Shown here: piece after piece, positions 696-18,991 of the stretch
Position numbering within the stretch: the stretch's first letter is position 1
Layout: the number at the start of each line of letters is the position of its first letter
Source: an uncultured Rickettsiales bacterium
GTDB lineage: Bacteria > Pseudomonadota > Alphaproteobacteria > Rickettsiales > JABCZZ01
DNA: 64,000 nt
Assembly (NCBI GenBank): GCA_964454545.1
Contig: CAYVTI010000003.1
Coordinates: 6,676-70,675, forward strand
Reading direction: 5' to 3'
Made by a program: the position numbers and the translations under genes
Notes under the pieces: generated by a model
Seen by the model: the letters and a program-made list of their open reading frames with translations, nothing else
Told to the model about the DNA's origin: nothing
The model's database searches: none

Positions 696-750
696 TGAGC
701 AGAGTTGCGCAATCATCTTCACTCAGCTCTAACCACTCATCCCTCTCTTT

Positions 751-1911: not shown

Positions 1912-1912
1912 T

Positions 1913-2442: not shown

Positions 2443-2463
2443 TAACTTCTCATCACTCATTCT

Positions 2464-5790: not shown

Positions 5791-5828
5791 ACGAGAATTT
5801 TTTCTCGTTTGACCATCAACAAATAATC

Positions 5829-5955: not shown

Positions 5956-6037
5956 CTTATCATTATTCATTATGAAACTTTTGTGTCACTTGTTTATTGC
6001 TGTTTTCATAAGCATGGCAATGGGTTAAAATGCCTAA

Positions 6038-7006
6038 GTGACACAATGGCCTGATATAGATCGCCGTCGTCTGGGCGCGATCAGCATTCTGCTTGGCAAT
6101 GCAGCGGTATTTGCCAATGGCCTCATTGCGAACCGGTTTGGCGAGGACCTGGACATGCGTAATGCTGGGGTGGGGCGCATGGCGTCGGCGGCGCTTACGA
6201 GTGGAGCCGGCCTGATTATCGGACGTTATGGTAGCTCACCGGTAGCCGCGCAGCTCGGGCGGCTTGAGAAGAAGCTTGCCGCTTTCATGAAACGGCACGG
6301 TATGCCGCTTGATGCGGAGCTGCTGAAGAAAGCGGATGAGGAAACCCGCAAGGGCTGGTTCTCTAAGCTTGAGGATTTCGCCTATGATCACCCTATGGAA
6401 TGCGGCAATATTTATAACGCGGTAGCAGCGCTCGGCATGCTGGGCAGCGGGTTTCTGCGCAGGCGGCGCGGCGAATTGCAGTCGGGCAATGCCAATATCA
6501 TCAACTATCTCATGATCCTTGCGGGAACGCTCTGGGGAAAAATGCAGGAAAAGCCGCTGAATTTCGCGGTCTGGCCGTTCCTTGGTGCGGACATATCCTT
6601 TGGCGGGCAGGCCTACGGCGAATATAAAACGGCAAAGCAATTACCGGAAAACAGCTCGCTGCGTCCGTGGATGTTCATCATGTCCGGCATTTCTGCCTTT
6701 ACAATGGTGGCTGCGGTCGTGGGCGATGTCCTGACTGGGTTCAGTTCCAAGAAAGTGGGTGGGAATCCCAAGGATCGCGAAGAGGCGCAGAACGAGCTCA
6801 TTGACAAGGCGGCGCGCATCCTTGCAAGCCAGCCCGTGGAAGTGCAGAGCCAGCTTGCAAAAGAAGCCGCAGAATACTTAAGCCAACAACAAGGATTGCG
6901 CATGGCGGATTTTGACGCCGATGCGCTGGTTTTACGTATCCTGCAGTCCATAGCGCGCCAGCAGGAACTTATCCAGAAAGAAACGCCCCGGCAGGGGCGT
7001 TTTTAA
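6038..7006 (+). CDS. Hypothetical multi-pass membrane protein (322 aa) with a helical, charged C-terminal tail
   Basis: GTG start at 6038. It has several hydrophobic segments (LGAISILLGNAAVFANGLIA, INYLMILAGTLWG, WMFIMSGISAFTMVAAVVGDVL). No family recognised. It lies in an AT-rich cargo island. Confidence 0.5.
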   Translation: MTQWPDIDRRRLGAISILLGNAAVFANGLIANRFGEDLDMRNAGVGRMASAALTSGAGLIIGRYGSSPVAAQLGRLEKKLAAFMKRHGMPLDAELLKKADEETRKGWFSKLEDFAYDHPMECGNIYNAVAALGMLGSGFLRRRRGELQSGNANIINYLMILAGTLWGKMQEKPLNFAVWPFLGADISFGGQAYGEYKTAKQLPENSSLRPWMFIMSGISAFTMVAAVVGDVLTGFSSKKVGGNPKDREEAQNELIDKAARILASQPVEVQSQLAKEAAEYLSQQQGLRMADFDADALVLRILQSIARQQELIQKETPRQGRF

Positions 7007-7085
7007 AGTGTTAACAGTAACCAAATATTAACTATTATCTGATATATTTCTCTCTGTGCCGTATGGGGAATCTTCAGATAGTTTT

Positions 7086-7448
7086 ATGATTATAAAATAT
7101 AAATCACTAATATCCTGCCTTGTGCTCGTTTCAGCTTCTGCCGCGGTTGCAGAGGATAACCTCATCTATATAAGCCAGGCGGGCAATCATAATATGGCCA
7201 GCGTTGCACAGTCGGGAAACAACAACTTCTATGACATATTGCTCACCGGGCAAAATGATGCAGCGAATGTTTCCCAGGGCGGCTCTTATAATACCGCGAA
7301 CCTAACGCAGAGCGGGATAAGCGATCAGATAAAACTGATCCAAAGCGGCAGTAATGATTTTGCTTCCATTACCCAGACCGGGCGTTTCGACGTTGCGGTG
7401 GTTAGCCAGATAGGGAATGGAAATCACGTCAGTATAATTCAGCATTAG
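7086..7448 (+). CDS. Secreted curlin-repeat (CsgA/CsgB-like) protein, orphan
   Basis: Signal peptide MIIKYKSLISCLVLVSASAAVA, then about five S-Q-x-G-x-x-N-x-A-x-V-x-Q-x-G type repeats (ISQAGNHNMASVAQSG, NVSQGGSYNTANLTQSG, LIQSGSNDFASITQTG, VVSQIGNGNHVSIIQH). The ORF opens at 7056. Confidence 0.6.
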   Translation: MIIKYKSLISCLVLVSASAAVAEDNLIYISQAGNHNMASVAQSGNNNFYDILLTGQNDAANVSQGGSYNTANLTQSGISDQIKLIQSGSNDFASITQTGRFDVAVVSQIGNGNHVSIIQH

Positions 7449-7562
7449 AGAGCGTTCTTGATTTAAGTGACTACAAAAACGCTCCCGTTCTTTAATGGCG
7501 CTCAAGCGCCGCGCAGGCTGCGCTCCCCTCTTGGCCGCCAGCCGCAGCTAAAGCTCCTCCCC

Positions 7563-7599
7563 GCATGTTCGTTTTTGTCTGCGACTAAAACGAACATGC
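7563..7599. other. Perfect 13-bp inverted repeat (GCATGTTCGTTTT / AAAACGAACATGC) with an 11-nt loop
   Basis: Read directly from the sequence. It lies downstream of the curlin-repeat gene. No adjacent T-run, so it is not a classical intrinsic terminator. Confidence 0.5.
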
Positions 7600-7699
7600 T
7601 CTAAATCTTAAAAATCGGGAATACGGGAAATCAGGAATTCCCGCCTATTCTCCATTGCCGGCTTCCTGACTTCCCAATTTCAACCTCAAAGGAATCCTT

Positions 7700-8947
7700 A
7701 TGTCACAAAACTCCCTTGTGCTGCCTACCACCGGGACGGTGAGCGGGCTGCAGATGACGCAGAACATCAACTATGCGCTTGACACGCTCAATACGCTCTG
7801 CTCGGGCGCTGCGGCTCCGGGCACGCCGGAAGCGGGGCAGTTCTGGCATGATACCACCAACAATATCCTCAAACTGCGCAGCCTTGATAATATGGCATGG
7901 ATTTCATTATTCAAACTTGATGAAGCCGGCTATCAGGCGCTTCTGTCAAATTCCTCTTACAATCAAGGCGGCTTCGTCAATAAATTCCACAACCCCATCC
8001 ATGATATAGCCCAGCGCGGTAATTCTGTAATTACCGTCACTACGTCGGGAGGATATGTCACAGATGGTTGGATTGTGACGCCAAGTGGCGCAAGCTGCAC
8101 GGCACAGCAGAGCGCATCCAACCCTCGCGCCGGCAGGTTGTCTACTTATTCCCTGCTGCTTACCGGCGCGACGGGTGTCACCGACATTGCGCTCAAGCAG
8201 CGCATCGAGAGCCTGATCGCGCAGCCGCTCGCAGGCCAGCAGGTCACCGTGCAGGCGCAGGTCTATAACAATACCGGATCATCGATTACGCCGACGCTTA
8301 CCGTGAAACGCCCGACCGCCACCGACAATTATACTTCGGTCACGGTTGATGTGAGCGCAGTGAACCTGCAGTCTTGTGCGAATGGCGCATGGACTTTAGT
8401 TTCCTACACTTTTGCATGTAACGCCGGAGCAGGGGCAGGGCTGGAAGTGACGATCGATTTCGGCAACAGTTTCAGCACTACCGGAAAAAGCGTGCAGGTC
8501 ACCGAACTGGATATAAGGGCAACGCCCGGCGTTGCGACAGGCCTTAACGGCACGCCGCCGGTGCCGGAAATACGCCCGATCCATGCCGAACTTGCATTCT
8601 GCCAGCGGTATTTCTTCTCGACGTTTCCTCCCGGCGTTGCGCCCGCCCAGAATGCGGGCAGCACCGGTTGCTGGAACTTCAACCAGATATATTCCAACAA
8701 CGCCAACAACCAGAGCACAGGGGACTTGCGCTTTGCTACCCAGATGCGGGCGGCGCCGACGGTGATCACCTATAACCCGTCCAATGCCAACGCGCAGCCG
8801 AGGAATTTCACGCGCGGGACGGATTGCACCGGCGCGGCGCTGGGGCAGTCTTCCGTCAACACCGTTACCTTCACCTATACGACGGCTTCCACATCCTCCG
8901 TAGGAGACGCCAACGGGTTACATATCACAGCAACAGCGGAGTTATAA
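7700..8947 (+). CDS. Phage tail fibre protein
   Basis: 415 aa with AAGGAA SD. N-terminus MSQNSLVLPTTGTVSGLQMTQNINYALDTLNTL and the internal AELAFCQRYFF motif are common in alphaproteobacterial phage fibre proteins. Confidence 0.6.
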   Translation: MSQNSLVLPTTGTVSGLQMTQNINYALDTLNTLCSGAAAPGTPEAGQFWHDTTNNILKLRSLDNMAWISLFKLDEAGYQALLSNSSYNQGGFVNKFHNPIHDIAQRGNSVITVTTSGGYVTDGWIVTPSGASCTAQQSASNPRAGRLSTYSLLLTGATGVTDIALKQRIESLIAQPLAGQQVTVQAQVYNNTGSSITPTLTVKRPTATDNYTSVTVDVSAVNLQSCANGAWTLVSYTFACNAGAGAGLEVTIDFGNSFSTTGKSVQVTELDIRATPGVATGLNGTPPVPEIRPIHAELAFCQRYFFSTFPPGVAPAQNAGSTGCWNFNQIYSNNANNQSTGDLRFATQMRAAPTVITYNPSNANAQPRNFTRGTDCTGAALGQSSVNTVTFTYTTASTSSVGDANGLHITATAEL

Positions 8948-8948
8948 G

Positions 8949-9110
8949 ATGTACCAGCAGATTCCCGATATCAGCGGCCATGCCCGCATCGATATGATTC
9001 AGCGCGCATCGGACGGAGCATTCATACCTTTTGATTCATCCAACAAGGATTACCAGGCATATCAGGAGTGGCGCGAAAAAGGAAACAGCCCGTTGCCGCT
9101 CAATCCATAG
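8949..9110 (+). CDS. Small fibre-associated protein (53 aa), possible fibre assembly factor
   Basis: Not in the ORF track because it is under 60 aa. ATG at 8949 lies 1 nt after the fibre stop. Peptide MYQQIPDISGHARIDMIQRASDGAFIPFDSSNKDYQAYQEWREKGNSPLPLNP. Position and the DYQAYQEW..GN.P motif resemble small genes that follow fibre genes. Confidence 0.4.
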   Translation: MYQQIPDISGHARIDMIQRASDGAFIPFDSSNKDYQAYQEWREKGNSPLPLNP

Positions 9111-9121
9111 CGGCGGAACCT

Positions 9122-9403
9122 ATGTCATATGACCAGGATATCAAGATAGCCGTCATGCAGAGCCAGATCGAAGGCCTGCGCGAACAGCACAGGTCGCATA
9201 AGGAGGAGATAACTAAATCTCTGAACCATCTTGCGGACAAGGTATTTCAGTCGATAGAGGGCATCCGCGGGGACATCAAGGACATATACGAATTCATCAA
9301 CCGCAGCCGGGGCAGCATCGCCGCGCTTCTACTCTGTTCAAGCGCGCTTGGGGGCGTTGTCGTAGCGGTCGTGTCATGGACGCTTGCGCGCTTCCTGAAA
9401 TAA
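9122..9403 (+). CDS. Holin-like small membrane protein (93 aa, coiled-coil N-terminus, single C-terminal TM)
   Basis: ATG at 9122 (ORF opens at 9068). C-terminal TM segment IAALLLCSSALGGVVVAVVSWTLA followed by RFLK. It sits upstream of the hydrolase and endolysin genes. Confidence 0.4.
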   Translation: MSYDQDIKIAVMQSQIEGLREQHRSHKEEITKSLNHLADKVFQSIEGIRGDIKDIYEFINRSRGSIAALLLCSSALGGVVVAVVSWTLARFLK

Positions 9404-9429
9404 TAATATGTACGCGCATGGAAAACTTC

Positions 9430-9459
9430 TTGCAAAATTACCGCTAACCGCCTTATAGG
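9430..9459 (+). promoter_or_regulatory. Possible sigma70-type promoter for the PelA-hydrolase-like gene
   Basis: TTGCAA (9430-9435), a 17-18 nt spacer, then TTATAG/TATAGG (9453-9459), about 30 nt upstream of ATG 9487. Confidence 0.2.
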
Positions 9460-9486
9460 GATACCCTTTACCCTCAAGGAAGCGTT

Positions 9487-10320
9487 ATGCTGCGGTATAT
9501 GATTTTACTGTGCGTCGTCCTCTGCATCGTTACCATTTGCCTCCTGTTTAACCGGCAGGAGAAGTGGGCAGCCTATTACGGCCATGACGTACCCTATGCC
9601 GAGCTTGAGGATTTCAACGTCCTGGTGTTCGACAGCGACAACCATCCGCCGCTTGCGCCGCTCAAGGCTGCGCGCAAGACCGTGCTGGGTTATATCAGCC
9701 TCGGCGAAGCCGATCCGGCCAGGGATTATTATTCCGTCCTCGCGCAGGAGGATCTCCTGCTGTCCGGAGATCCGGCATCCAACGGGCAGACAGTTATCGA
9801 TGTGCGCAATCCCAAGTGGGGCGATTATGTCATAAGAGTCCTCGTGCCCAAGATCATGGCGCAGGGGTTTGACGGCATTATGATCGATACGGTGGACAGC
9901 ATCATCCAGACGGAAGTGAGCGCGCCGCGCCGCTATGCTGGCATGCAGAAGGCCGCGGCGCGGATAATAAAAGATATCCGCATGCATTATCCTAACCTCA
10001 AAATTATGGTTAACCGAGGATTTGCTATCCTTCCCATGGTGGCGGGCGATATAGACATGGTGCTGGCGGAAAGCACTTACAGCACTGTCTCGCCGGATAC
10101 GAAACAGCATATGTTGCGTCCGCAGGAAGAATACAAGAATATCGTCAGGCTGCTTAATAACGTGAAAAGGCAGTCGGCATCGCTGAAAATATACACGCTC
10201 GATTACTGGCCTCAGGAGGACGGGGAGAACGTCAAACGTATCTATGCCGCGCAGCGCGGCGAGGGGTTTATTCCCTACGTGTCAACGCAGGATCTGCAAT
10301 CTCTCTATCACGAGCCATAA
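9487..10320 (+). CDS. Stand-alone PelA-hydrolase-type glycoside hydrolase (GH114/GH166-like TIM barrel) with an N-terminal membrane anchor
   Basis: 277 aa with AAGGAAG SD. Anchor MLRYMILLCVVLCIVTICLLF. Motifs VLGYISLGE, DGIMIDTVDS, KIMVNRGF, YTLDYWP and GFIPYVSTQDL match, from memory, the FAYLSVGE / LFLDTLDS / FFNRGFE / VAIDYLPP / GYVPFVSTPALD series of the Pseudomonas PelA hydrolase domain. Confidence 0.75.
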   Translation: MLRYMILLCVVLCIVTICLLFNRQEKWAAYYGHDVPYAELEDFNVLVFDSDNHPPLAPLKAARKTVLGYISLGEADPARDYYSVLAQEDLLLSGDPASNGQTVIDVRNPKWGDYVIRVLVPKIMAQGFDGIMIDTVDSIIQTEVSAPRRYAGMQKAAARIIKDIRMHYPNLKIMVNRGFAILPMVAGDIDMVLAESTYSTVSPDTKQHMLRPQEEYKNIVRLLNNVKRQSASLKIYTLDYWPQEDGENVKRIYAAQRGEGFIPYVSTQDLQSLYHEP

Positions 10321-10383
10321 AGAATTATACGACTTTATGTTGTGGGGCCGTCGCATGGAACTCCTCCACCTATCCACCTTGCC

Positions 10384-10836
10384 ATGTATCATTTTATGCT
10401 TTCTCTAAATTCCGCAGGGCTTGCGCTGATCAAGTCTTTTGAAAGCTTCCGCGCGCGGCCTTATCAGGATAGCGGCGGGGTATGGACCATAGGTTACGGG
10501 CACACGCAGGATGTTACTCCTGAAAGCCCGCCGGTTATGGAAGAGGAGGCGGAAGAGTTCCTGCGCGAGGATCTGGCGGATGCGCAGGATGCAGTCGGGC
10601 GGCTCGTGCATGTTCCCTTGAACGACGACCAGTATTCCGCGCTGGTTTCGCTAGTCTATAACACAGGCCCGGCGCCGCTCACCCATACGCTAGGTGCCTT
10701 GCTGAATGAGGGACATTACGATGCTGCGGCGGATGAGTTTCTCAGGTGGAACCATGCGGATGGCGAAGCAAGCGAAGGGCTTACGAGGAGACGGAAGGTG
10801 GAAAGAGAATTATTTTTAAGCAGTGGCAAGAGCTGA
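10384..10836 (+). CDS. Phage endolysin, GH24 lysozyme
   Basis: LSLNSAGLALIKSFESFRARPYQDSGGVWTIGYGHT with the catalytic Glu context. The start is uncertain (GTG 10342, ATG 10384 or ATG 10396). Confidence 0.85.
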   Translation: MYHFMLSLNSAGLALIKSFESFRARPYQDSGGVWTIGYGHTQDVTPESPPVMEEEAEEFLREDLADAQDAVGRLVHVPLNDDQYSALVSLVYNTGPAPLTHTLGALLNEGHYDAAADEFLRWNHADGEASEGLTRRRKVERELFLSSGKS

Positions 10837-10884
10837 GTGACCAGAGTTGAGTGCCGCTTACTCAACTCTCAACTCTGGCCACTC
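10835..10884 (+). promoter_or_regulatory. Long imperfect hairpin, copy 2 of the conserved intercistronic element
   Basis: GAGTGACCAGAGTTGAG (10835-10851) pairs with CTCAACTCTGGCCACTC (10868-10884). It contains TACTCAACTCTCAACTCT (10859-10876), 17/18 identical to 2425-2442. Confidence 0.5.
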
Positions 10885-10903
10885 ACCACTAAAAGGATCC
10901 ACT

Positions 10904-11383
10904 ATGACCGAAGAAACACAAACAGCGCCTTCGCTTATCTACGATGTCGTGTGTACAGATGCAGAAGGCCGGGAAAAATGGCGCGAGCGCGTGCATAACC
11001 TTGTTACGGCTGTCGGAAAAACCGATATCATCGATAAATATTTCAAAGGCTCTGCCTATACGGCGGCATGGTATCTTGGGCTGAAAGCCAGCGGTACGGC
11101 AGTCTCCGGCGATACGCTTGCCTCGCACAGCGGCTGGAGCGAAATCACGCCTTATTCCGGCAATCGTCCCGCCATCACTTTCGGCGCCAGCTCCGGCGGA
11201 AGCAATACCGCGAACGCGGTGGGCATTTCCATCAACGCGACCGCGACCATTTCCGGCGCGTTCATCGCAAACGCGAACAGCGGCACCAGCGGGATTTTAT
11301 ACAGCGCAAGCGATTTCAGCGTGGCGCGCACTGTTGCAAGCGGCGACACACTCTCCGTCACGCCGACGGTTTCGGTGTCTTAA
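10904..11383 (+). CDS. Phage hypothetical protein (159 aa), probably structural
   Basis: ATG at 10904 with AAAGGA SD (ORF opens at 10847). Gly/Ser/Thr/Ala-rich beta-type sequence (..GWSEITPYSGNRPAITFGASSGG..GDTLSVTPTVSVS). No family named. Confidence 0.5.
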   Translation: MTEETQTAPSLIYDVVCTDAEGREKWRERVHNLVTAVGKTDIIDKYFKGSAYTAAWYLGLKASGTAVSGDTLASHSGWSEITPYSGNRPAITFGASSGGSNTANAVGISINATATISGAFIANANSGTSGILYSASDFSVARTVASGDTLSVTPTVSVS

Positions 11384-11456
11384 GGAAATATTAAGATTTG
11401 ACTACAAGCCTATTCCCAAGTTGCCGGATTTCCGATTTTCCGGTATTATCAGCCGG

Positions 11457-12386
11457 ATGAAGCAGGCTGAATCGAATGAGGCGCGTAAGGAAAGGCTGTT
11501 GCATACGCTCTATGCCCTGCGGGGGCATTTCCGGGAGAGCGCCCCTGCGGATCCGGAGGATCTGACGCTCGGCCAGAAGGATGCGGAAGGGGTGATACTC
11601 CATTGCATTGATTCGCGCCTTAACGAGCGCAAGGATTTACATCTCGCCCGCGGGGAGTATTTCCAGACGGCGTCCGCAGGCGCGGCCGTGCCGCCTTATG
11701 ACGGGCAACGGGTGAGTCTTGAGCACCAGGTGGATCTGGGCTATCCGGCGCTGCATTTTCCCAAGGTGCGCAACATCGTCATCATGGGGCATACGCATTG
11801 CGGCGCGAACAAGGCGCTTTACGACGCGCTGCTCGGCGACGCGAAGCCTTCTGACGGTTTTGAAGCGGGCTGGATGCTGCCGGTTGCGCCGGAAGGGTTG
11901 AGCGCGGCGCTCAAGAAAGCAAAAAGCGCGGGCGTGGATGAGCAGGAGCAGTTGCGTATCGTGGAGCAGCTCAGCGTCCTGCAGTCCATGAAACATTTAT
12001 ATGATTACTATTTCAACGATAAGTCCGTGCGTGACAATGTCGGCAACGGCAGCCTGCATGTGATAGGCGCGATCCGGGATATCCATGCGGATGCGGAAGG
12101 CAAATTCCCGCTGTTGGTCTATGATTCAGGCAGGAATGCATTCCGCAAAATCGAGGAGCTTTATGATGAGGTTTTTCCGGATACAGGCAAACGAACGGCA
12201 GAAAATATAGAAAACGCAGCGAAGCCTTTGCTTGAGCAGCAGAAAAAGATGCTTGTGCCTGCGGCGCACATGGTGGTGCAGAAAGGCGCGGAGAGCAGCA
12301 CGGTGGCGGAGATGGAAATCAGCCAGATTCAGGATGGCGTCAGAAAGCTGCTGGATAAGGTGAATAAGGCGGGAGTATCACGATGA
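11457..12386 (+). CDS. Beta-class carbonic anhydrase-like protein with a long C-terminal extension
   Basis: 309 aa from ATG 11457. The 422-aa ORF opening at 11118 overlaps the previous gene. Zinc-ligand motifs CIDSR and GHTHCGA are present, with beta-CA-like blocks ARGEYFQTASAGAAV and GSLHVIGAIRDI. There is an extra tail of about 90 aa. Confidence 0.7.
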   Translation: MKQAESNEARKERLLHTLYALRGHFRESAPADPEDLTLGQKDAEGVILHCIDSRLNERKDLHLARGEYFQTASAGAAVPPYDGQRVSLEHQVDLGYPALHFPKVRNIVIMGHTHCGANKALYDALLGDAKPSDGFEAGWMLPVAPEGLSAALKKAKSAGVDEQEQLRIVEQLSVLQSMKHLYDYYFNDKSVRDNVGNGSLHVIGAIRDIHADAEGKFPLLVYDSGRNAFRKIEELYDEVFPDTGKRTAENIENAAKPLLEQQKKMLVPAAHMVVQKGAESSTVAEMEISQIQDGVRKLLDKVNKAGVSR

Positions 12387-12625
12387 AGGAAGCGCTCGAT
12401 AAAAATAAGTACGTGCTGGAACGCGTAACCGGAAAAGATGTAAACGGGAAACCAGTATTTGCTTACGTGCTCCTGCGTAAAAAACGCCTGGCGGATTTTC
12501 GCAGGGAGATGGGCAGGCGCGATGTTGACCTCGCTGAGTTCGGCGTCATTGTCGCCTATGGCAGCGGTACGAATCCACCTGCCGATTTCGAACAGCATGT
12601 TCTGGAGGCTGTAAGAAAGCTGTAA
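12383..12625 (+). CDS. 80-aa hypothetical protein, paralogue of 18120-18362
   Basis: ATGA overlap with the upstream gene (12383-12386). Shares GKD..GKP...YVL..K..L..F....D..E.G.....G.G.NPP with the other copy. Confidence 0.55.
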   Translation: MKEALDKNKYVLERVTGKDVNGKPVFAYVLLRKKRLADFRREMGRRDVDLAEFGVIVAYGSGTNPPADFEQHVLEAVRKL

Positions 12626-12636
12626 ATTCGCTTTTT

Positions 12637-13206
12637 CTATCTCTGCGGGATATTGTCCACCATCTTCTGCAGCCTGGCGACCCGCTCCTGGTAGGTAAGT
12701 TTCCTGCGTTCTGCGCTTTCTTCCGGTTTCAGGCCATGCCTTTCCAGAATGCGGGCGAAGGTTTTATTGTCGAATATCATCTTAAGTTCATCACTGTGTT
12801 CCTCGGCAACCGCCGTGTATTTGCTGAGGGCGTAAGCCACAGGAATCACCATAGAGGATGCAGCCGTTATATCTTTCTGCACATCCGGGGAAACATCACC
12901 CTGCTGCAGCATTCGGCTGAAGGGCGAAGCGGCGGATTGAAGCTTTAGCGAATCCAGGGAGATCTGGTTGAGGTCCGGTAGCCTGACAGGGTCGATGCCG
13001 TTTTCTCCCTGAGAAAGCGCCACATGCAGCTTTTCAAGTCCCGGAACGCTGATGTTATGGCCGCGCGCCATATCCAGTATTCTGCCCAGTCTTTCCGCAG
13101 ACACTCTCAGCGCTTCCTCGCTGGTGGTTACGGTGGCATCGCTTCCCTGATAATGATCGAGCAGGGATTTCGCCAGAATGTCACGAAACGCTACAGCATC
13201 GGCCAT
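12637..13206 (-). CDS. Hypothetical protein (189 aa), N-terminus MADAV
   Basis: ATG with GAGGAA SD and an uninterrupted ORF. No family recognised. Convergent with the 80-aa gene. Confidence 0.5.
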   Translation of the reverse strand: MADAVAFRDILAKSLLDHYQGSDATVTTSEEALRVSAERLGRILDMARGHNISVPGLEKLHVALSQGENGIDPVRLPDLNQISLDSLKLQSAASPFSRMLQQGDVSPDVQKDITAASSMVIPVAYALSKYTAVAEEHSDELKMIFDNKTFARILERHGLKPEESAERRKLTYQERVARLQKMVDNIPQR

Positions 13207-13331
13207 ATAAAAGTTCCTCAGGACGGAATCATTTTAGCATAGTGACGGCAAAAGGCATGTTAAAAGTTTATGACACCATTCCTTAATGTGTGGAGCCGCG
13301 AAATTTCCAGGTAAAAAGATACTTGCTATCG

Positions 13332-13922
13332 TTAGCGGGACTTCCCTGTTATTCTTAATGACTGTTTGCCTGTGTCTCCCGGCAACGGTATTTCAGGCAG
13401 TTGAGCAGAAGGTGGAGACCTCCCTGCATTTATGTTTGCCTCATACTCACGGACAGCGCTCTCTATAGGAGGAGGTTTCCTTTCCGGAGCAGAATTGTTT
13501 GTCAATTGCATCAAAAGAGACGAAGTTCTTACCAATTCTGGATCTCTGATGATGGGGGAAGATTTTGATTTTATAAGAGAAGAAGCAAATTTATGAATTG
13601 CTTCTGCTTCTTTTGCGAGCGTTTCATTAGAAGGGATTTTATCAACAGATATTTCCTGTTCTTTCTCTACTGTGGCGCTAGGTAATGCAGCGCTAAGCAA
13701 TGCATGGAGTTTTCTCAAATCAGGTACATCGGGTGGTACATCGGCTTCGTTGTATACCTCATCTCTTCTTGGGTATGCTTCATCTATTCTTTTAAGTACC
13801 TCTCCTAATATTGAGGAAGTGAATTTCAGGGGGGCGTCTGGTTTGGGATTTCCAGACGTTAGGTAAAATACGGCCAGCCGCCTGCGCAGTATCGAATTAA
13901 AGTCTTCCATTCTGTTAGCCAT
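13332..13922 (-). CDS. Hypothetical protein (196 aa), Pro/Ser-rich, in an AT-rich region
   Basis: ORF 13332-14015. ATG 13922 (MANRMEDFN..) is preferred because GAGAG lies 8 nt upstream. No family recognised. Confidence 0.4.
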   Translation of the reverse strand: MANRMEDFNSILRRRLAVFYLTSGNPKPDAPLKFTSSILGEVLKRIDEAYPRRDEVYNEADVPPDVPDLRKLHALLSAALPSATVEKEQEISVDKIPSNETLAKEAEAIHKFASSLIKSKSSPIIRDPELVRTSSLLMQLTNNSAPERKPPPIESAVREYEANINAGRSPPSAQLPEIPLPGDTGKQSLRITGKSR

Positions 13923-14059
13923 AAAATTGCTCTCAAGTACTCTCAAGCGAATTATCTGAAACGATTTTACCATGATAATGGTAAAGGAAATATTAAGAAT
14001 TTTGTTAAATTTCAAACTGAGACACTACCAGCCAAATCATAAGCTTGACCTAACCTTCG

Positions 14060-14386
14060 AATTTTACTATAACTTCCCCCGCAGGCGCGAAGCGTCTGTG
14101 GGAAGTTCGAAGCTCTCATCTGTGTGTCGTTAGCGGTTTGTGTACCGTTATTCTCACTCCCTTGCCCATGCTGGGCGGGGAGGGATCAGTTATACAACAG
14201 GCTTCGGCCGAAGGCTGATTCCAACCTTTCTAGCGACAGGTTGCTTCGAACTCTCCCGCTCACCCAGCAGCAATGCTGGCTTATGGCAGGGGAGACCGTA
14301 ATGCATGTCCAGAGGCGCTGCAATCGCCTTAAAGATTACGGTAGAACCTCAAATGTTCAGATGGCTCCCCTGCCGCTTTTCATTTG
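14060..14386 (+). ncRNA. Candidate structured RNA element, copy A
   Basis: Nested hairpin 14071-14107 (AACTTCCC..CAGGCGC-GAA-GCGTCTG..GGGAAGTT). Core TATACAACAGGCTTCGG at 14191-14207. Hairpin CCAGCA-GCAA-TGCTGG at 14264-14279. Perfect 10-bp outer stem GGCAGGGGAG / CTCCCCTGCC (14285-14294 / 14365-14374) enclosing ACCGTAAT / ATTACGGT and AGGCG / CGCCT stems, followed by GCTTTTCATTT. Confidence 0.4.
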
Positions 14387-14491
14387 CCAGTCCACTTGTC
14401 ATGCCCGCGCAGGCGCATCTTAACATACTAAAGAGCTAAAATTCCCGCTTTCGCAGGAATGACAATTATTACCCGGATATCAGAATATCAT

Positions 14492-16369
14492 ATGACGACC
14501 GAACAATTCTCCAACCTGGCGCAGACGACGCTCGCCAGCACCGTTAGCGCGGGCGCGACTTCGCTTATCGTGGCATCCGCCTCCGGATTTCCTGCGGGCG
14601 GGCAATTCCGCATCGTCATCGATCAGGAAATATTCCTGGTGACGGCGGTTTCCGGCGTTACTTTTACCGTGACTCCGGGGTATGAGGGCACGATGCAGGC
14701 CGCTCATGCGGGCGGCGCTGCGGTGGCGCACATTCTTACTGCCGGGGTGATCTCGCAGATATACAATAACGCGCTTAATTTCGCCACGCCGCGTATTCAG
14801 GCATTCGGCGATTCGCGTGCTTCCTACTGTGGCCTTAACGTCAACCAGTCGAGTTCGACGTTTGCCAACCCGGCGATGGAATATCCAAACCGCTCGCCGG
14901 TTGCCTGGGCTAACCGCTTCCTGCGCGGGCGGCTCAACTTCGATCTGACGCTTGGCTATATCGGCCAGTTTCAGGCGGTGTGCAGCGTGAAAGTGGTGAA
15001 TGGCGGCTCCAATTACACGTCGCCTTCGGTGTCATTTTCCGGCAGCGGCACAGGGCTTACCTTTGGCGCTCCGGTAGTATCGGGCGGGGTCATCAAAAGC
15101 GTGCCGGTGACGGCGCAAGGCATCAATTTTACCTCGCTGCCCACGTTGAGCGTGAGCGACTCCACCGGATCAGGCGCGGTATTGCAGGCCGTTATCGGCG
15201 GCACGGGAACATTCGGCGTCGCCGGGGAGACTACGATGCAGTGCGTCAACCGCCTGTCCGATATCGCTTCGGTGGCGGCGGATATCGTGTTTGTCTGCAT
15301 AGGCACTAATGACATTACCAACGGCGTTTCCGCGGCAACTACAAAGGCCAACCTGCAGACGATATTCGATACGTTAATTGCAGCGGGGAAGATGGTCGTC
15401 TATTGTCCGGATCAGGCGCGCAGCTACTGGGCATCGCTTACCGGCAGCCAAATCACCAACGCCCGCCACCAGATGTATAATGTGAAGCGCTGGGCATACC
15501 AGTACGCATTGCTTGCGAACGGCAAGAACCCGAACGGCAACAGGAAAATCATTATCTGCGACGCGGAGGATTTCTGGGCGGATGCGACAAGCAGCACTGG
15601 CAATCCGCTTTCGCTCATGACCTCCGATGGCCTGCACTGGTCGACCGCGAGCGCGCAGGCGATGGGGCTGAGACTTGCGCAGCAATTGCAGCCGCTGCTG
15701 GGACTCTCGGGGCCTGCCATGATCATAAGCCAGGTGGATGGGTACGATGCGACCTATAATCCCGATGGCGCGCTCAATTTCGGCTGGCTGATGAATGCCA
15801 CTCCCGGCACGCCTACAGCACCGGTTACCGGAAGCATCGCCGGAAATTTCAGCGCATTCCGCAGCTCCGGCTCGGCGACCGGCACGATGGCGGGTTCCAT
15901 CGAATCGGTACGCACGGACGGCTTAAGCGGCAACCGGCAGGTGTTCACGTTTTCACTCGGCAGCGGCACGAGCAGCGAGCAATATAATTTCGGCATCACG
16001 AGCAGCGCGATTTCATCCTATAATATCAGCGTTGGCGATACGATCAGCGTCGAATGCGACATGTGGCTTTCGGGGCAGGCGAACGTGAACCGCCTGCTGC
16101 TGCAAATCAACTTCACCCAAAGCGGCACGACGGCTATGCAGGCGATGGACGGCGACAATGTCACCGATAAATTCATCGCCTCCGGCGCGTATATGGCGAT
16201 TGCCGGGGATACAAATCCGATGACTTTCCGCACGCCGCCGGTCATTGTTCCCTCCGGCGCCGATCATTTGACCTGCTATGCTATCATTGGTTTTGACGCA
16301 AGCGGCGGCGCAGGCTCAGCGACCGCTACATGGAAGATCGGGAATTTCAGGATAAGAAAAGTGGTGTAG
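14492..16369 (+). CDS. Tail fibre / tail spike with an SGNH (GDSL) esterase domain
   Basis: 625 aa from ATG 14492 (ORF opens at 14459). Fibre-type N-terminus MTTEQFSNLAQTTLASTVSAGATSLIV. SGNH blocks AFGDSRAS, VCIGTNDI and SDGLHWS. Confidence 0.7.
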   Translation: MTTEQFSNLAQTTLASTVSAGATSLIVASASGFPAGGQFRIVIDQEIFLVTAVSGVTFTVTPGYEGTMQAAHAGGAAVAHILTAGVISQIYNNALNFATPRIQAFGDSRASYCGLNVNQSSSTFANPAMEYPNRSPVAWANRFLRGRLNFDLTLGYIGQFQAVCSVKVVNGGSNYTSPSVSFSGSGTGLTFGAPVVSGGVIKSVPVTAQGINFTSLPTLSVSDSTGSGAVLQAVIGGTGTFGVAGETTMQCVNRLSDIASVAADIVFVCIGTNDITNGVSAATTKANLQTIFDTLIAAGKMVVYCPDQARSYWASLTGSQITNARHQMYNVKRWAYQYALLANGKNPNGNRKIIICDAEDFWADATSSTGNPLSLMTSDGLHWSTASAQAMGLRLAQQLQPLLGLSGPAMIISQVDGYDATYNPDGALNFGWLMNATPGTPTAPVTGSIAGNFSAFRSSGSATGTMAGSIESVRTDGLSGNRQVFTFSLGSGTSSEQYNFGITSSAISSYNISVGDTISVECDMWLSGQANVNRLLLQINFTQSGTTAMQAMDGDNVTDKFIASGAYMAIAGDTNPMTFRTPPVIVPSGADHLTCYAIIGFDASGGAGSATATWKIGNFRIRKVV

Positions 16370-16446
16370 CGAGTAAGGAGTCGCGAATTGCGCGGGTATG
16401 TGGAGGAGCGTTAGCGACGCCCCCTTGCAATAAAGAATAATCCTAT

Positions 16447-16914
16447 ATGATACTTTCAGCCAATTACGCAGCCTCACCCTATGGCAGCATTGCCTACGGC
16501 GCACGCGGCCAGGCAAACTATGCGAGCGCCACCAGCGACGCCGTTACGGGTGCAGATGCGCTTGCTGCCATTGCGGCATGTGTATCTTCCACCGCCGAGG
16601 CGGTTACAGGCAGTGATAGTATTTCCGCGATTGCAGCCTTCTATCCAGGCTTTGCCGAATCGGTCACGGGCAGCGATCTGCTTGCGTTGATACTATATGC
16701 AAGCGATCAGATACGCAGCCTGATAACGGCGGCTGATTTCGGCGCTTCCTATATATTCCATCCTGCGGACGTATTCGATGCGCAAGAATACAGGATGTTC
16801 AACGTCCCGGCAGAAAAACGGGCAGGGACGGCAGAGTTGCACGCGCCTGTATCTGTAAACGCGGAGAACCGGCAGGCGGCGGCAAATCCGGAAAACAGGA
16901 ATTTCAAGGCATGA
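16447..16914 (+). CDS. Phage hypothetical protein (155 aa) with internal AVTG-x-D-x3-AIAA repeats
   Basis: ATG start. Three repeats: DAVTGADALAAIAA, EAVTGSDSISAIAA and ESVTGSDLLALIL. It follows the fibre gene. Confidence 0.5.
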   Translation: MILSANYAASPYGSIAYGARGQANYASATSDAVTGADALAAIAACVSSTAEAVTGSDSISAIAAFYPGFAESVTGSDLLALILYASDQIRSLITAADFGASYIFHPADVFDAQEYRMFNVPAEKRAGTAELHAPVSVNAENRQAAANPENRNFKA

Positions 16915-17000
16915 AAGCGGTGATCAGTGACCCGTGGTTTGCAATGGTTACTGATCGCTGGACACTCTCCGCATCGTTTCAGCCACCATAGGAGTATATT

Positions 17001-17297
17001 ATGAGCATGATCGGCACCAAAACGCCTGACGAAATAAAAGACTATTCACTCGACTGGTCAAAGGACATCGGCACCGATGTCATAGCGAATAGCGCAAACA
17101 GCGCATGGACGGTTTCGCCCTCCGACGTAACCATCACCCAGAGTTCGCTTGCCTCGAACGGTACGCTTACGACCGTGTGGGTATCGGGCGGGACGATAGG
17201 GCAGGCATACCAGGTGAAGAACCGTATTGTGACCACATCCGGGCGCAATCTGACTAAGGTGTTCAGGCTGCTGGTAGTGGGGAGTAATTATCTTTAA
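17001..17297 (+). CDS. Small virion protein, fibre-tail adaptor-like (98 aa)
   Basis: GGAG SD. N-terminal KTPDEIKDYSLDWSKDIG motif, as seen in phage fibre-adaptor type proteins. Confidence 0.45.
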   Translation: MSMIGTKTPDEIKDYSLDWSKDIGTDVIANSANSAWTVSPSDVTITQSSLASNGTLTTVWVSGGTIGQAYQVKNRIVTTSGRNLTKVFRLLVVGSNYL

Positions 17298-17358
17298 CTC
17301 GAGGTGTCAGGTTCTGGCTGGCACCCGGCATCTGGTTCCTGAATCCTTACGTAATCAT

Positions 17359-17733
17359 ATGATCGCATTTATCCTGAATCTTCTCCGGCAGCACTGGCTC
17401 GGCGTTGCTGAAATTATCCTGCTTGCCGCTCTTGCCGTCCAGCATGTGGAAATTGGGCATTTACGTAACAGAATGGCCGGGTACAGGGAAGAAAACCGGA
17501 TGCTTTCTGATTCCAACAGGCGTCTTTCCGGCATGCTGGCAAAACAGAACCAGGCGATTTTTGCACTGCAAAATGAAGCGGAAAGAAAGAGCCGTGCAGC
17601 TGCCAGATCGCTTGCGCATGCCCGTATTTCCATGCAGAGGCGTGCCTTCATCGCAGAGAAATTGAAAGCGCGTAAAATGACCGGTGACGAATGCGCGGAT
17701 GTGCTCATGCTGCTTAACAACTATTTCAAATAA
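17359..17733 (+). CDS. Putative i-spanin (Rz-like)
   Basis: 124 aa. N-terminal TM segment LGVAEIILLAALAV, then a coiled-coil region rich in R/E/Q. It is immediately followed by a lipoprotein gene. Confidence 0.5.
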   Translation: MIAFILNLLRQHWLGVAEIILLAALAVQHVEIGHLRNRMAGYREENRMLSDSNRRLSGMLAKQNQAIFALQNEAERKSRAAARSLAHARISMQRRAFIAEKLKARKMTGDECADVLMLLNNYFK

Positions 17734-17743
17734 AGGATGGAAC

Positions 17744-18001: not shown

Positions 18002-18032
18002 TTTCTTCTTTGTTGAATTTATAATGGACTTA

Positions 18033-18067
18033 AAGGGCAACACCGCGAGGTGTTGCCCTTTTTTATT
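18033..18067 (+). terminator. Intrinsic terminator closing the phage + strand genes
   Basis: 12-bp stem AAGGGCAACACC-GCGA-GGTGTTGCCCTT followed by TTTTATT. Confidence 0.7.
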
Positions 18068-18119: not shown

Positions 18120-18362
18120 TCAGGAATATTGCTTTTTTATCGCGTCGGTAACTTCTTTCGGCGGGTTTTCGCCCCAGCCGGATTCGAGCACTTTGCCGTA
18201 TTCGGAAACATCGATATTTCCGGTCTTAAGCGCCTGCTGGAAAATGGGCAGCTTTATTTTGTCAATAAGCACATAGTGCCATGCAGGTTTTCCTGCATCC
18301 TTACCCCTGACAAGGTAAACCAGATCGCCCTTGGAACTTTGTACTTTCTCGGTAAATGCCAT
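18120..18362 (-). CDS. 80-aa hypothetical protein, paralogue of 12383-12625
   Basis: Starts 5 nt after the upstream 207-aa gene. Same conserved pattern as the other copy (GKDAGKPAWHYVL..KLPIF..DVSEYG..GWGENPP). Confidence 0.55.
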   Translation of the reverse strand: MAFTEKVQSSKGDLVYLVRGKDAGKPAWHYVLIDKIKLPIFQQALKTGNIDVSEYGKVLESGWGENPPKEVTDAIKKQYS

Positions 18363-18367: not shown

Positions 18368-18991
18368 TTACATACTCTTCTGCAATGGCTGTTGTACAGC
18401 GATTTCTGCCACCGGAGCCCTGACTTCCGTTGCGGGTTTTTTCCTCTCATGCTGATATCGTATTGCGGTATTTGATATTTCTTCCTGATTCTGCTGGACA
18501 AATTGCTGAATGGGCCAGGATTGCCCGGCTATGGCGCCGGTAAGCGCTATGGTCTCGTCATATTTTCCAGACGTGAGCAGGTTATCCATGCTAAATGCCT
18601 GATTTCCCTCGGCAGTCTTGTTAGCGAATTTGAGTATCTGGTGCAGGGCGAGAATGGCACCCCTGAATTCAGCAATGGTGTTCCAAGGCAGGGCAGCGAA
18701 ATCTTTTTCTACGTTATTCAACTCTCTCTTATTGTCTTGCATTGTATCAAAGAAGCTTGCAAGTCCTATGACGCTGCGCAACTGATTGGGCAATGCAGCG
18801 ATGATGTCGCCTGCTATGGCAATGTCTGGCTGGGGCGGATATTGCTGCGTAAGCCGGATGATTTCCTCTTTTTCCTGTGGAGGTATTTGGGCAAGAAGCG
18901 GCAGCAATTTTGTGCTGTTTTCCAAAGTTTCGTTAAGGGCTGGCACAATGGCGCTGTATTTTTCCGTCAATGCTGGGACTGCGTCTGCCAT
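18368..18991 (-). CDS. Hypothetical protein (207 aa), N-terminus MADAV
   Basis: Strong SD AGGAGGAA. Helical, Gln/Pro-rich. No family recognised. Confidence 0.5.
   Translation of the reverse strand: MADAVPALTEKYSAIVPALNETLENSTKLLPLLAQIPPQEKEEIIRLTQQYPPQPDIAIAGDIIAALPNQLRSVIGLASFFDTMQDNKRELNNVEKDFAALPWNTIAEFRGAILALHQILKFANKTAEGNQAFSMDNLLTSGKYDETIALTGAIAGQSWPIQQFVQQNQEEISNTAIRYQHERKKPATEVRAPVAEIAVQQPLQKSM

Follow-up and report, generated by a model that had tools for sequence, protein, structure and literature searches.

Two stand-alone copies of a compact α/β domain in and beside a Rickettsiales prophage, one of them paired with a β-carbonic-anhydrase-like gene

The locus described here raises the question of what two small proteins of equal length are and whether each of them belongs to the larger gene at whose 3′ end it is encoded. 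In the window—the whole stretch of 64,000 nucleotides from an uncultured Rickettsiales bacterium that was analysed—the initial annotation had reported two paralogous reading frames and had seen in them the layout of effector/chaperone, toxin/immunity or enzyme/regulator cassettes. Both reading frames are present, with 80 aa apiece, and are called P1 and P2:

12383..12625, plus strand: P1, a divergent stand-alone copy of the domain described below, 80 aa, translationally coupled to the preceding CA-like gene (family HMM, AF2, ATGA overlap)
18120..18362, minus strand: P2, a canonical stand-alone copy of the same domain, 80 aa (family HMM), chromosomal and located just beyond the prophage

Their paralogy is supported by a significant alignment (pairwise BLASTP, 47.4 bits, E = 5e-14), with 24 of 65 residues identical (37%) and 63% positives; the identities that had been estimated by eye agree with the computed ones, i.e. 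27% over the full length and 37% over the 65 residues. The motif GKD-x-GKP is common to both proteins, as had been described, its alignment nevertheless requiring a one-residue indel—GKDVNGKP in P1 and GKDAGKP in P2. The AF2 models (pLDDT of 88.5 for P1 and 80.7 for P2) predict the same core order in both folds, consisting of a β-hairpin, a helix, a strand and a helix, the complete predicted topology of P1 being helix, β-β, helix, β, helix. In a six-frame scan of the window, the family HMM matched the P2 (E = 6.9e-41) and P1 (E = 1.7e-26) reading frames only, so that no third copy of the domain was found there.

The domain of which P1 and P2 are stand-alone copies is a compact α/β one of ~70 residues and is absent from the libraries searched. 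The family is defined by the alignment A1 and by the HMM built from it. It has no match in Pfam, NCBIfam, PHROGs, PADLOC or the PDB sequences, and the Foldseek comparison with PDB and BFVD yielded no significant fold match (best E = 0.23 and 0.26, with TM-scores up to ~0.5). The source names found for its members are all “hypothetical”, and literature searches by motif strings and by Anaplasmataceae and ankyrin topics revealed no description of it. The Anaplasmataceae regulator EcxR/ApxR, tried as a candidate identity, was rejected, EcxR being an HTH protein of 108 aa (PMC9657007).

The family covers about 2,000 clusters at 50% identity, with 1,989 representatives at E ≤ 1e-3 and 607 at E ≤ 1e-10, and P2 itself has 28 homologues with identities of up to 75%. 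The domain was found at 58 genome loci, mostly from Wolbachia, Ehrlichia, Anaplasma and Neoehrlichia, and every Anaplasmataceae lineage sampled, i.e. these four, carries it as a single-copy gene according to the scan of the fetched loci. The Anaplasmataceae form has the domain at the C-terminus of ~150-aa proteins, the genes of which are always divergent from the tRNA-modification gene miaA; this arrangement, with no co-directional gene upstream, was seen at 45 Rickettsiales loci. Among the best 150 of the 1,989 representatives, 35 are stand-alone, 14 are tandem and 68 have the domain C-terminally in proteins of 111–320 aa, the remainder being 24 proteins longer than 320 aa and nine others; the domain lies at most 15 residues from the C-terminus in 110 of these 150. 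Fusions were found with TIR_2 (P0047, P0074), NACHT plus HEAT (P0145), Pkinase plus ZZ plus TPR, ankyrin repeats and a Cys/His-rich N-terminal domain (“GHG...SDCSYSG”), as well as in a STAND-like protein from a Nostoc plasmid; the records of the fusion proteins come from Actinobacteria, Nostoc, a brachiopod, a coral and a spider (including Lingula and Stylophora). Tandem fusions of a canonical with a degenerate repeat occur, and one locus (L003) contains a degenerate and a canonical gene side by side. Across phyla, the core identity of the domain amounts to 62–76%, pointing to a very strong constraint. That this is a phage family was considered and rejected: none of 50,697 phage records contains it, nor does IMG/VR, and in both of these P1, P2 and the carbonic-anhydrase (CA)-like gene described below likewise have no matches; among 72,556 plasmids, the family is present in one only.

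Concerning the two copies in the window, P2 is the canonical chromosomal one and P1 the divergent one. P2 has the consensus residue at all invariant and near-invariant positions of A1 and keeps the signature Y16-L-V-R19-G-K-D22, A27-W-H-Y-V31, D51, G56 and S61-G-W-G-x-[ND]-P-P68. P1 is regarded as a divergent member of the family because five signature residues are replaced—R19, W28, H29, S61 and W63 of the family by T, F, A, Y and S, respectively—while the rest are kept (G20, D22, Y30, V31, F41, D51, G56, G62, G64 and PP); the residues changed are 79–94% conserved across 284 domain instances. Its assignment to the degenerate “repeat 2” class of the tandem proteins was rejected, the repeat-2 HMM giving 39.1 bits and the canonical HMM 40.9 bits.

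The gene preceding P1 is the one for which the idea of a cassette proved fruitful:

11457..12386, plus strand: long β-carbonic-anhydrase-like enzyme of 309 aa (Pfam Pro_CA), the conserved upstream partner of P1

The start of this gene had been placed at TTG 11118; it is most likely at 11457, the resulting protein of 309 aa being called in the same way in L071 (stored as P0208). Its stop overlaps the start of P1 by ATGA (...cacgATGAagg), exactly as had been annotated, and GGGAG is found 8 nt upstream at this junction. The protein matches Pfam Pro_CA (PF00484) with E = 9.2e-19 and 68.7 bits against a cut-off of 25.7, and its CIDSR and HTHCG correspond to the CxDxR/HxxC zinc-site motifs, aligning with CSDSR and HSACG of the pea β-CA 1EKJ; by this alignment, the zinc ligands and the active site are intact, the protein being a metabolic-type enzyme. 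It thus shares the zinc-site motifs and the core fold region with the β-class CAs (PF00484, aligned on pea 1EKJ), from which it differs by a C-terminus ~100 residues longer, by forming a subfamily of two members and by the small overlapping gene downstream. To our knowledge, no such small overlapping partner has been known for β-CAs.

Both members of the CA subfamily, the only ones among 5.8 billion protein clusters, are accompanied by the small gene. The second one is found in one unrelated chromosomal contig (L001, L002, L070), where the cassette recurs with the same order, strand and 4-nt overlap, so that the pairing is based on two independent genomes. The flanks differ, with enolase, a second Pro_CA and Cys_Met_Meta_PP in L001 and phage genes in the window. 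The enzyme is 49% identical to its L001 orthologue (E = 8e-110), and P1 is 54–56% identical to the small protein of that cassette (P0029), which is the sole P1 relative found; a metagenome scan for further CA-linked relatives of P1 returned the already known contig alone. The enzyme and the small protein are each the sole members found of their own subfamilies and occur together in both cases; by the identities given above, they have diverged in parallel, and the cassette moves as a unit. P1 thus looks like a dedicated partner of the CA-like enzyme, since the overlapping gene pair recurs in an unrelated contig and the only other member of the CA subfamily is found there.

With regard to P2, the surroundings are different:

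18368..18991, minus strand: 207-aa “MADAV” gene upstream of P2, separated from it by a 5-nt gap; also called in L011
18081..18099, minus strand: terminator-like hairpin and T-run ending the 207-aa/P2 unit, CCTCCACCCTAGGTGGAGG followed by TTTTTTT

A gap of 5 nt separates the TAA of the 207-aa gene from the start of P2, in agreement with the initial annotation, and the 207-aa protein has no family match in Pfam, PHROGs, NCBIfam or PADLOC. The nearest orthologues of P2 (73–74% identity; L009, L072) sit between Tim44 and MltA, whereas its other relatives follow a pentapeptide-repeat protein, a ferredoxin, MurJ, a VirD4-like protein and unknowns. A conserved upstream partner of P2 was rejected, the upstream proteins of seven relatives being mutually unrelated except for Tim44 in L009 and L072, and the position of P2 beside the 207-aa gene would be local and incidental, this gene being a neighbour and no conserved partner. 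The cassette layout was therefore right for P1, for which the overlapping pair with the CA-like gene recurs, and wrong for P2, the gene upstream of which is not conserved; neither does it hold for the family generally, the homologues adjoining unrelated genes, which the initial annotation itself had named as a refuting observation, and the 45 miaA loci lacking a co-directional gene upstream.

A reading in which the larger, variable genes upstream encode toxins or effectors, and the small proteins are their respective antitoxins, immunity proteins or chaperones, is very improbable. The tight coupling to differing upstream genes is repeated—by ATGA here and in L001, by the 5-nt gap after the 207-aa gene and by overlaps of 1–4 nt in L023, L058 and L073—and one copy, P1, is carried by a mobile element. 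The upstream genes, however, are those of a metabolic enzyme with an intact active site, a pentapeptide-repeat protein, a ferredoxin, Tim44 and MurJ, with no toxins among them; the 45 loci divergent from miaA offer no co-directional candidate, and phages, IMG/VR and plasmids are essentially devoid of the family. Searches of Pfam, NCBIfam and PADLOC revealed no toxin, antitoxin or immunity domain in P1, P2, the CA-like protein or the 189-, 196- and 207-aa proteins, so that the toxin/immunity and effector/chaperone readings proposed previously gained no positive evidence. A component of a defence system was rejected as well, PADLOC having returned no match for the proteins of the window.

As to the function of the domain, we infer, tentatively and short of proof, that the canonical form is a ligand-binding module and that, in P1, the CA-like enzyme has a degenerate accessory subunit. 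The canonical domain would be neither an enzyme nor a toxin and would bind a ligand that is ubiquitous, by means of the aromatic and basic residues conserved in its β-hairpin and SGWG loop; the ligand would most likely be a nucleic acid, probably RNA, with a nucleotide-type small molecule in second place. A ubiquitous ligand would explain the stand-alone use of the domain in alphaproteobacteria and Rickettsiales as well as its terminal use on TIR, STAND NTPase, kinase and ankyrin proteins. In P1, the binding surface would have been lost and the fold kept, the protein, co-translated with the β-CA-like enzyme, acting as its regulator or as an accessory subunit in stoichiometric amounts. If so, the cassette would represent a natural experiment in which a fold without its signature site has been turned into an enzyme partner.

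The hints at a nucleic acid are of several kinds. The conserved surface residues of the domain are aromatic and basic, their exposure being deduced from the strand periodicity; the N-terminal tails are basic (median pI 9.6) and, by their low-complexity composition, apparently disordered, the pI of the domain itself being only ~8.7; and the gene is paired divergently with miaA at the 45 loci mentioned above. The GKDxGK hairpin resembles the KOW motif (PF00467; NusG, Spt5 and ribosomal protein L24), the β2-β3 hairpin GDLVYLVRGKDAGKP being similar to the consensus G-x-x-V-x-V-x-x-G-K-D-x-G-K and both domains being small β-rich modules. P2, however, missed the Pfam gathering threshold of KOW (15.4 bits vs 22.3, E = 0.017) and P1 gave no match to it; moreover, the helix, strand, helix and SGWGxNPP loop of the domain are without a KOW counterpart, and Foldseek found no SH3-barrel match for the domain models. 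The top-ranked PDB fold matches of both models are PC4/Sub1, dsRBD and Pur-alpha, which resemble the domain in having 65–80 aa and a mixed three-stranded sheet with helices, although none of these matches is significant (E at least 0.2, TM 0.23–0.37) and the order of elements differs from that of the domain, being α-β-β-β-α in dsRBD and β-β-β-β-α in PC4. The sub-threshold KOW similarity, the fold matches with TM below 0.4 and the domain pI of ~8.7 thus point weakly to a nucleic acid, and the fusions with TIR, STAND NTPase, ankyrin and TPR suit a protein–protein adaptor or a small-molecule sensor equally well.

One reading of these fusions, which we consider unlikely, is that the domain senses a small molecule, e.g. 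a nucleotide-derived second messenger, or constitutes an immune-signalling module, switching on TIR, STAND NTPase, kinase and caspase-like effectors, the stand-alone copies being receptors or buffers of the same ligand and P1 an inactivated one. The company of TIR_2, NACHT plus HEAT, the STAND-like Nostoc protein, Pkinase plus ZZ plus TPR and the Cys/His domain speaks for it, as does the usually terminal position of the domain; the high identity across phyla would fit a fixed small ligand, and the tandem and paired copies would suggest a dimeric pocket. On the other hand, Pfam, PADLOC and Foldseek gave no likeness to SAVED, CARF, STING or PilZ, no cyclase or other signal-generating gene is present beside the stand-alone copies examined, 70 residues are small for a nucleotide pocket, and in the reduced genomes of Anaplasmataceae the family is kept as a housekeeping-like single gene.

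A homotypic protein–protein adaptor of the EAD or Death-like kind, with stand-alone copies docking on or competing with larger carriers and with P1 and P2 possibly heterodimerising, seems doubtful, too. The two papers on EADs, bacterial Death-like domains and TRADD-N (Kaur et al. 2020, PMC7159879; 2021, PMC8195603) describe similar company, namely TIR, STAND NTPases, TPR, ankyrin, kinases and a caspase-like region, and a similar phyletic pattern of multicellular bacteria and marine invertebrates, Lingula and Stylophora in the present case; term searches of both papers found no description of the domain. The canonical-degenerate tandem fusions, the adjacent genes of L003 and the presence in the window of exactly one canonical and one degenerate copy would also agree with an adaptor. 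Known adaptors are, however, poorly conserved in sequence, the domain being far more conserved and present, in each of the Anaplasmataceae lineages sampled, as a single gene that appears to have no second copy in the fetched loci. Furthermore, no multidomain carrier of the domain was found in the window or near the stand-alone genes examined, and P1 is no nearer to the degenerate second repeats than to the canonical copies (39 vs 41 bits). EAD and Death domains are all-helical, unlike the domain studied here, and no Pfam match to TRADD-N, Death-like domains or EADs was obtained for it at E ≤ 10. TRADD-N is described as RRM-like, with a four-stranded sheet and two kinked helices (PMC8195603); an identity with it was rejected on topology, the domain being predicted as β-β-α-β-α.

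A broader view, speculative and in our opinion improbable, would see in the domain an ancient module, so far unrecognised, that senses either a nucleic acid or a signal derived from a nucleotide and is shared by the single-copy protein of Anaplasmataceae, the bacterial TIR/STAND immune-type proteins and the ankyrin/TPR/kinase/caspase-like proteins of protists and invertebrates, with gene flow between rickettsial symbionts and their hosts, P2 being the ancestral sensor and P1 a ligand-blind enzyme subunit. Returning to the preferred binding module, should it hold, a new conserved domain would join Rickettsiales biology, bacterial anti-invader systems—through the TIR and STAND NTPase fusions—and invertebrate immune-type proteins, and the gene kept in every sampled lineage of Wolbachia, Ehrlichia, Anaplasma and Neoehrlichia is one that is still annotated as hypothetical; should the domain be an ordinary structural protein, the finding would shrink to one more domain of unknown function. 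P2, as a small soluble form of 80 aa encoded by a free-living alphaproteobacterium, is a handy target for structure determination and ligand screening.

The genomic setting of the P1 cassette is given by the following features:

10847-11383: Gp80-like fibre gene, phage family (PHROG/Pfam)
11382..11399: left copy of an 18-nt direct repeat, AAGGAAATATTAAGATTT, overlapping the stop of the Gp80-like fibre gene
11421..11449, plus strand: promoter-like site upstream of the CA-like gene, TTGCCG-17-TATTAT, 9/12
12637..13206, minus strand: 189-aa “MADAV” gene of the island, convergent with P1 (ORF list)
13332..13922, minus strand: 196-aa gene of the island in a low-GC stretch (44% GC), with ATG at 13922 (ORF list)
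13984..14001: right copy of the 18-nt direct repeat, AAGGAAATATTAAGAATT
14459-16369: tail-fibre/GDSL gene, phage family
17001-18001: phrog_4137, phrog_3774 and phrog_3580, phage families
18032..18061, plus strand: terminator-like hairpin closing the phage operon (spanin-like genes) and facing P2, a 13-bp stem followed by TTTATTGT

The placement of P1 in a prophage cargo island and of P2 just outside the prophage stands, phage genes flanking P1 on both sides. The island covers 2.6 kb within the tail/lysis module, has direct repeats at its edges that match at 17 of 18 positions, and contains no phage family among its genes; it is thus a cargo island, its non-phage genes being embedded among structural and lysis genes of the phage and accompanied by scars of insertion. 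The hairpin at 18032..18061, immediately preceded by phrog_3774 and phrog_3580, marks the edge of the prophage. A search with Rfam between 10 and 20 kb yielded sub-threshold matches only. The stops of P1 and the 189-aa gene are 11 nt apart, and the hairpin scan found no terminator after P1. Neither the 189-aa nor the 196-aa gene has a match in Pfam, PHROGs, NCBIfam or PADLOC, and homology among the 189-aa and 207-aa “MADAV” genes and the 196-aa gene was rejected (BLASTP E = 1.4, shuffle z-scores 0.7–1.5). The promoter-like site is a consensus match; sites of this kind are as numerous as the shuffle expectation, and the match does not exceed chance. From this site the cassette may be transcribed without recourse to the phage, in the manner of a moron. 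The CA-like gene, P1 and the two unknown genes lying between tail-fibre genes, the promoter-like site, the lower GC in a part of the island and the short flanking direct repeats all resemble phage morons, which are cargo units transcribed autonomously within the late regions of prophages; from these the cargo differs in belonging to no known moron family, neither the CA-like gene nor P1 being present in the 50,697 phage genomes or IMG/VR. As cargo of a prophage, the carbonic-anhydrase-like gene is a rare example.

P1 (12383–12625, +) and P2 (18120–18362, −), 80 residues apiece, were both confirmed by ORF calling, and they are paralogues, as the initial annotation had proposed, the similarity being significant (BLASTP E=5e-14; 37% identical across 65 aligned residues and 27% over the full length). 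A family profile built from relatives, scanned over the six frames of the 64-kb window, matched only P2 (E=6.9e-41) and P1 (E=1.7e-26). The AlphaFold2 models of both proteins are confident (pLDDT 80.7 for P2 and 88.5 for P1) and have a common core, in which a long β-hairpin leads into a helix, then a third strand and finally a C-terminal helix. The more interesting result, going beyond the framing of that annotation, is the domain itself, an unnamed module of ~70 residues, along with an unusual degenerate copy linked to an enzyme.

Neither P1 nor P2 has a significant match in Pfam, PHROGs, NCBIfam, PADLOC or the PDB sequences, and the relatives from Ehrlichia, Wolbachia and planctomycetes likewise lack any library match at E<=10; the sole Pfam trace is a sub-threshold KOW motif on the P2 hairpin (15.4 bits; cut-off 22.3). 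Foldseek found nothing significant for either model in the PDB and BFVD, the top, non-significant matches being PC4-like, dsRBD and Pur-alpha folds (E>=0.2, TM<=0.4). Even so, the family has many members: 28 metagenomic relatives of P2 (identity up to 75%) came from a word-indexed search, and an HMM run exhaustively against 1.84 billion cluster representatives gave 1,989 matches at E<=1e-3, 607 of them at E<=1e-10. Among genomes sampled at one per GTDB species, 58 family loci were found, mostly from Wolbachia, Ehrlichia, Anaplasma, Neoehrlichia and other Rickettsiales, with a few from Planctomycetes and MAGs labelled Actinomycetota. All source names of the members read 'hypothetical protein', and text searches (motif strings; two Aravind-lab papers on conflict systems, PMC7159879 and PMC8195603) found no description of the domain. 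It should be pointed out that the family is not the Anaplasmataceae regulator EcxR/ApxR, a 108-aa HTH protein (PMC9657007).

Concerning the architectures, the 150 best representatives comprise 35 stand-alone proteins (110 aa or shorter), 14 tandem duplications, 68 proteins of 111–320 aa with the domain at the C-terminus, 24 proteins longer than 320 aa and nine with other arrangements. The partners of the domain in composite proteins are as follows.

Domains found together with the family domain
TIR_2: P0047 and P0074 (TIR domain of P0047 confirmed by PADLOC models)
NACHT and HEAT: P0145
HEAT alone: P0065
STAND-like region: a 1,050-aa Nostoc plasmid protein
Pkinase, ZZ and TPR: P0030, P0032 and P0049
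Ankyrin repeats: records from Lingula anatina, Stylophora pistillata and Nephila pilipes
Unannotated Cys/His-rich N-terminal domain ('GHG...SDCSYSG'): proteins on megabase-scale, evidently eukaryotic contigs

A highly conserved domain that lacks annotation is common to Rickettsiales, bacterial TIR/STAND proteins and invertebrate ankyrin/TPR proteins, and it belongs with the small modular domains—a known kind—common to bacterial conflict systems and animal immune-type proteins. The identity across phyla in the ~58-residue core is unusually high, 62–76%, for the pairs spider and Wolbachia, Lingula and the Rickettsiales type, and an actinobacterial-type TIR fusion and alphaproteobacterial stand-alone proteins. 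Over 284 domain instances (P2 numbering), the conspicuously conserved residues are G56 and G64 (99% each), P67 (98%), G62 (96%), W28 (94%), G20 (93%), Y30 and S61 (92% each), W63 (89%), D22 (84%), D51 (83%), and R19 and H29 (79% each).

The Nostoc protein (WP_114085885.1, hypothetical; L074, 3094–6246, on plasmid pNsp_l of Nostoc sp. ATCC 53789) is the sole plasmid match; it matches NPHP3_N/STAND weakly, the family domain forms its extreme C-terminus, and its gene adjoins a RelE/ParE toxin-antitoxin pair. The Cys/His-rich domain (~170 aa; P0053, P0078, P0096, P0103, P0127, P0156, P0170) has no Pfam match; by eye, its 'GHG' and 'SDCSYSG' motifs are reminiscent of the catalytic dyad of caspases/metacaspases. 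The kinase-ZZ-TPR proteins, found on short contigs and, by eye, of low-complexity, protist-like appearance, have the subtype 'KAGTNIDV.DYGK[IV]I[RK]SGWG', otherwise seen only in freshwater Rickettsiales and Anaplasmataceae MAGs (L064, L065, P0092, P0105), which suggests host-symbiont gene exchange.

The Anaplasmataceae members (~145–165 aa) have an N-terminal tail of basic, low-complexity composition (median pI 9.6 across the set), which appears from its sequence to be disordered. In 45 Rickettsiales loci the upstream neighbour is miaA, the gene of tRNA isopentenyltransferase, on the opposite strand. In these loci (L013–L067) the family gene lies at about 5770–6243, always divergent from miaA, the arrangement holding in Wolbachia, Ehrlichia, Anaplasma, Neoehrlichia and related MAGs while the outer genes vary, and the tails hold four to five repeated F-containing motifs, e.g. 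SFxxRF and GGFxxKY.

The extreme conservation across phyla, the conserved aromatic and basic residues of exposed type on the hairpin, the terminal position in signalling or effector proteins and the frequent duplication together point to a putative binding module, which would recognise a ubiquitous ligand. The hairpin with its likeness to KOW, the basic tails, the miaA pairing and the nature of the weak fold neighbours tentatively place a nucleic acid, probably RNA, first as this ligand. A small molecule of the nucleotide type comes second and seems unlikely, and a role as a homotypic adaptor, ranked third, is more doubtful still.

P1 and P2 are not equivalent copies. P2 has the consensus residue at all invariant and near-invariant positions of the family alignment and groups with alphaproteobacterial stand-alone genes, whereas P1 is at most 41% identical to all full-length members save P0029, its one relative (62% in the core, 54–56% overall). 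Both P1 and P0029 replace R19 (by T/Q), W28 (F), H29 (A), S61 (Y) and W63 (S/N), and P1 therefore represents a degenerate lineage that has kept the fold and lost the signature surface. The pairing of degenerate with canonical copies recurs in 11 tandem proteins with a canonical repeat 1 and a degenerate repeat 2 (P0046, P0056, P0068, P0072, P0075, P0081, P0084, P0107, P0109, P0119, P0174) and in locus L003, where a degenerate gene (125 aa) adjoins a canonical one (122 aa; 7534–7911 and 8001–8369). In repeat 2 of the tandem fusions, F-[HY]-A-[YF] replaces W-H-Y and the PP motif is absent. The degenerations of P1 and of the second repeats look independent, since P1 is no nearer to the latter than to the canonical copies.

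The genes and signals surrounding P1 and P2 are listed below.

Features of the window around P1 and P2
1–18,000: tail module gene families DUF2460; Gp84_N/BR0599; NlpC/P60; Phage-tail_3 with Rcc01698_C
1–18,000: further module genes, i.e. tail-fibre gene; GH114; lysozyme; Gp80-like fibre gene; tail-fibre/GDSL gene
11382–11399 and 13984–14001: 18-nt direct repeat, 17/18 identical, AAGGAAATATTAAGA(T/A)TT
11457–12386, +: CA-like gene, 309 aa, β-class carbonic anhydrase homologue (Pfam E=9.2e-19)
12637–13206, −: 189-aa gene
17001–18001: three phage-family genes, two of them phrog_3774 and phrog_3580, presumably a spanin-like pair
18032–18061, +: phage-side terminator, facing the P2 hairpin
18099–18081, −: hairpin and T-run after P2, facing the phage-side terminator
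18368–18991, −: 207-aa gene upstream of P2

The idea that each small protein partners a variable upstream gene holds for P1, whose pairing with the CA-like gene recurs, and fails for P2, which has no conserved upstream partner. The CA-like protein, with intact CxDxR and HxxC zinc-site motifs and a C-terminal extension of ~100 residues, has exactly one relative among 5.8 billion protein clusters (49% identity, E=8e-110), encoded in locus L001 and followed by P0029, again with a 4-nt overlap; in the window the overlap is the ATGA joining the CA-like stop to the P1 start, as described, with GGGAG 8 nt upstream. The L001 cassette is flanked by enolase, a second Pro_CA and a Cys/Met-metabolism gene, that of the window by phage genes, and since the overlapping pair recurs with wholly different flanks, the two genes travel and diverge together, the independent instances being two only. 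On balance, P1 probably serves the CA-like enzyme, as either a stoichiometric accessory subunit or a regulator. Its exact sequence is missing from the searched protein collection, although the CA-like neighbour is present, and the one record of it, in L071, is a gene call cut short where a contig ends; the annotation of the source genome may have left P1 uncalled. The antisense ORF 12329–12598 should be regarded as spurious, the family signal being on the + strand. L001 also contains (2929–4019 and 4025–4972) three nearly identical 82–84-aa genes, unrelated to P1/P2, whose products each combine a hydrophobic core with a basic C-terminus; next to them is a multi-pass membrane protein, exosortase-like by eye.

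With regard to P2, the 5-nt gap from the TAA of the 207-aa gene is as reported, but the nearest orthologues (73–74% identity, two samples) lie between Tim44 and MltA, and other relatives have an unrelated or unknown upstream gene, or none that is co-directional. The upstream proteins of the P2 relatives show no mutual similarity, and no family was detected for the 207-aa gene in Pfam, PHROGs, NCBIfam or PADLOC. Coupling within 5 nt to varied upstream genes occurs in roughly eight of 20 non-Anaplasmataceae loci, a normal range for bacterial operons. The toxin/immunity and effector/chaperone readings of such layouts find no support, the PADLOC search being negative and the family essentially absent from the phages and plasmids searched; the former is highly improbable. 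The 189-aa and 207-aa genes both start with MADAV and each adjoins a small gene, but the two proteins are not significantly similar (BLASTP E=1.4, shuffle z=1.2), and the likeness is treated as an odd coincidence.

The first 18,000 nt of the window represent the distal part of a tail and lysis module of a GTA/phiJL001-type siphophage. The window begins inside this RcGTA/phiJL001-like module (prophage or GTA), of which positions 1–18001 are the distal half; fibre genes, a GH114 glycosidase, a lysozyme, a GDSL esterase fibre and the spanin-like pair lengthen it further. Within it, the CA-like gene, P1, the 189-aa gene and a 196-aa gene form a 2.6-kb island with no phage-family match for any of the four and 44% GC in part. 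The direct repeat brackets exactly these four genes, its left copy overlapping the Gp80-like fibre gene at the stop codon, and may be an insertion scar; by a rough estimate, ~0.03–0.1 such pairs would be expected by chance in this 8.7-kb stretch, and it is the position that makes the repeat notable. A promoter-like site precedes the CA-like start by 8 nt, such sites being no commoner here than in shuffles. Between the island and the tail-fibre/GDSL gene, ~450 nt (14002–14458) are non-coding, with a sub-threshold Rfam sRNA-Xcc1 match at 14173–14269 (30.5 bits; gathering score 53). P2, as had been stated, lies directly beyond the phage, and so does the 207-aa gene; both are co-directional with the neighbouring host genes, which we take from their translations to be those of an M50-like peptidase, NagZ, a SPOR protein and ArgS.
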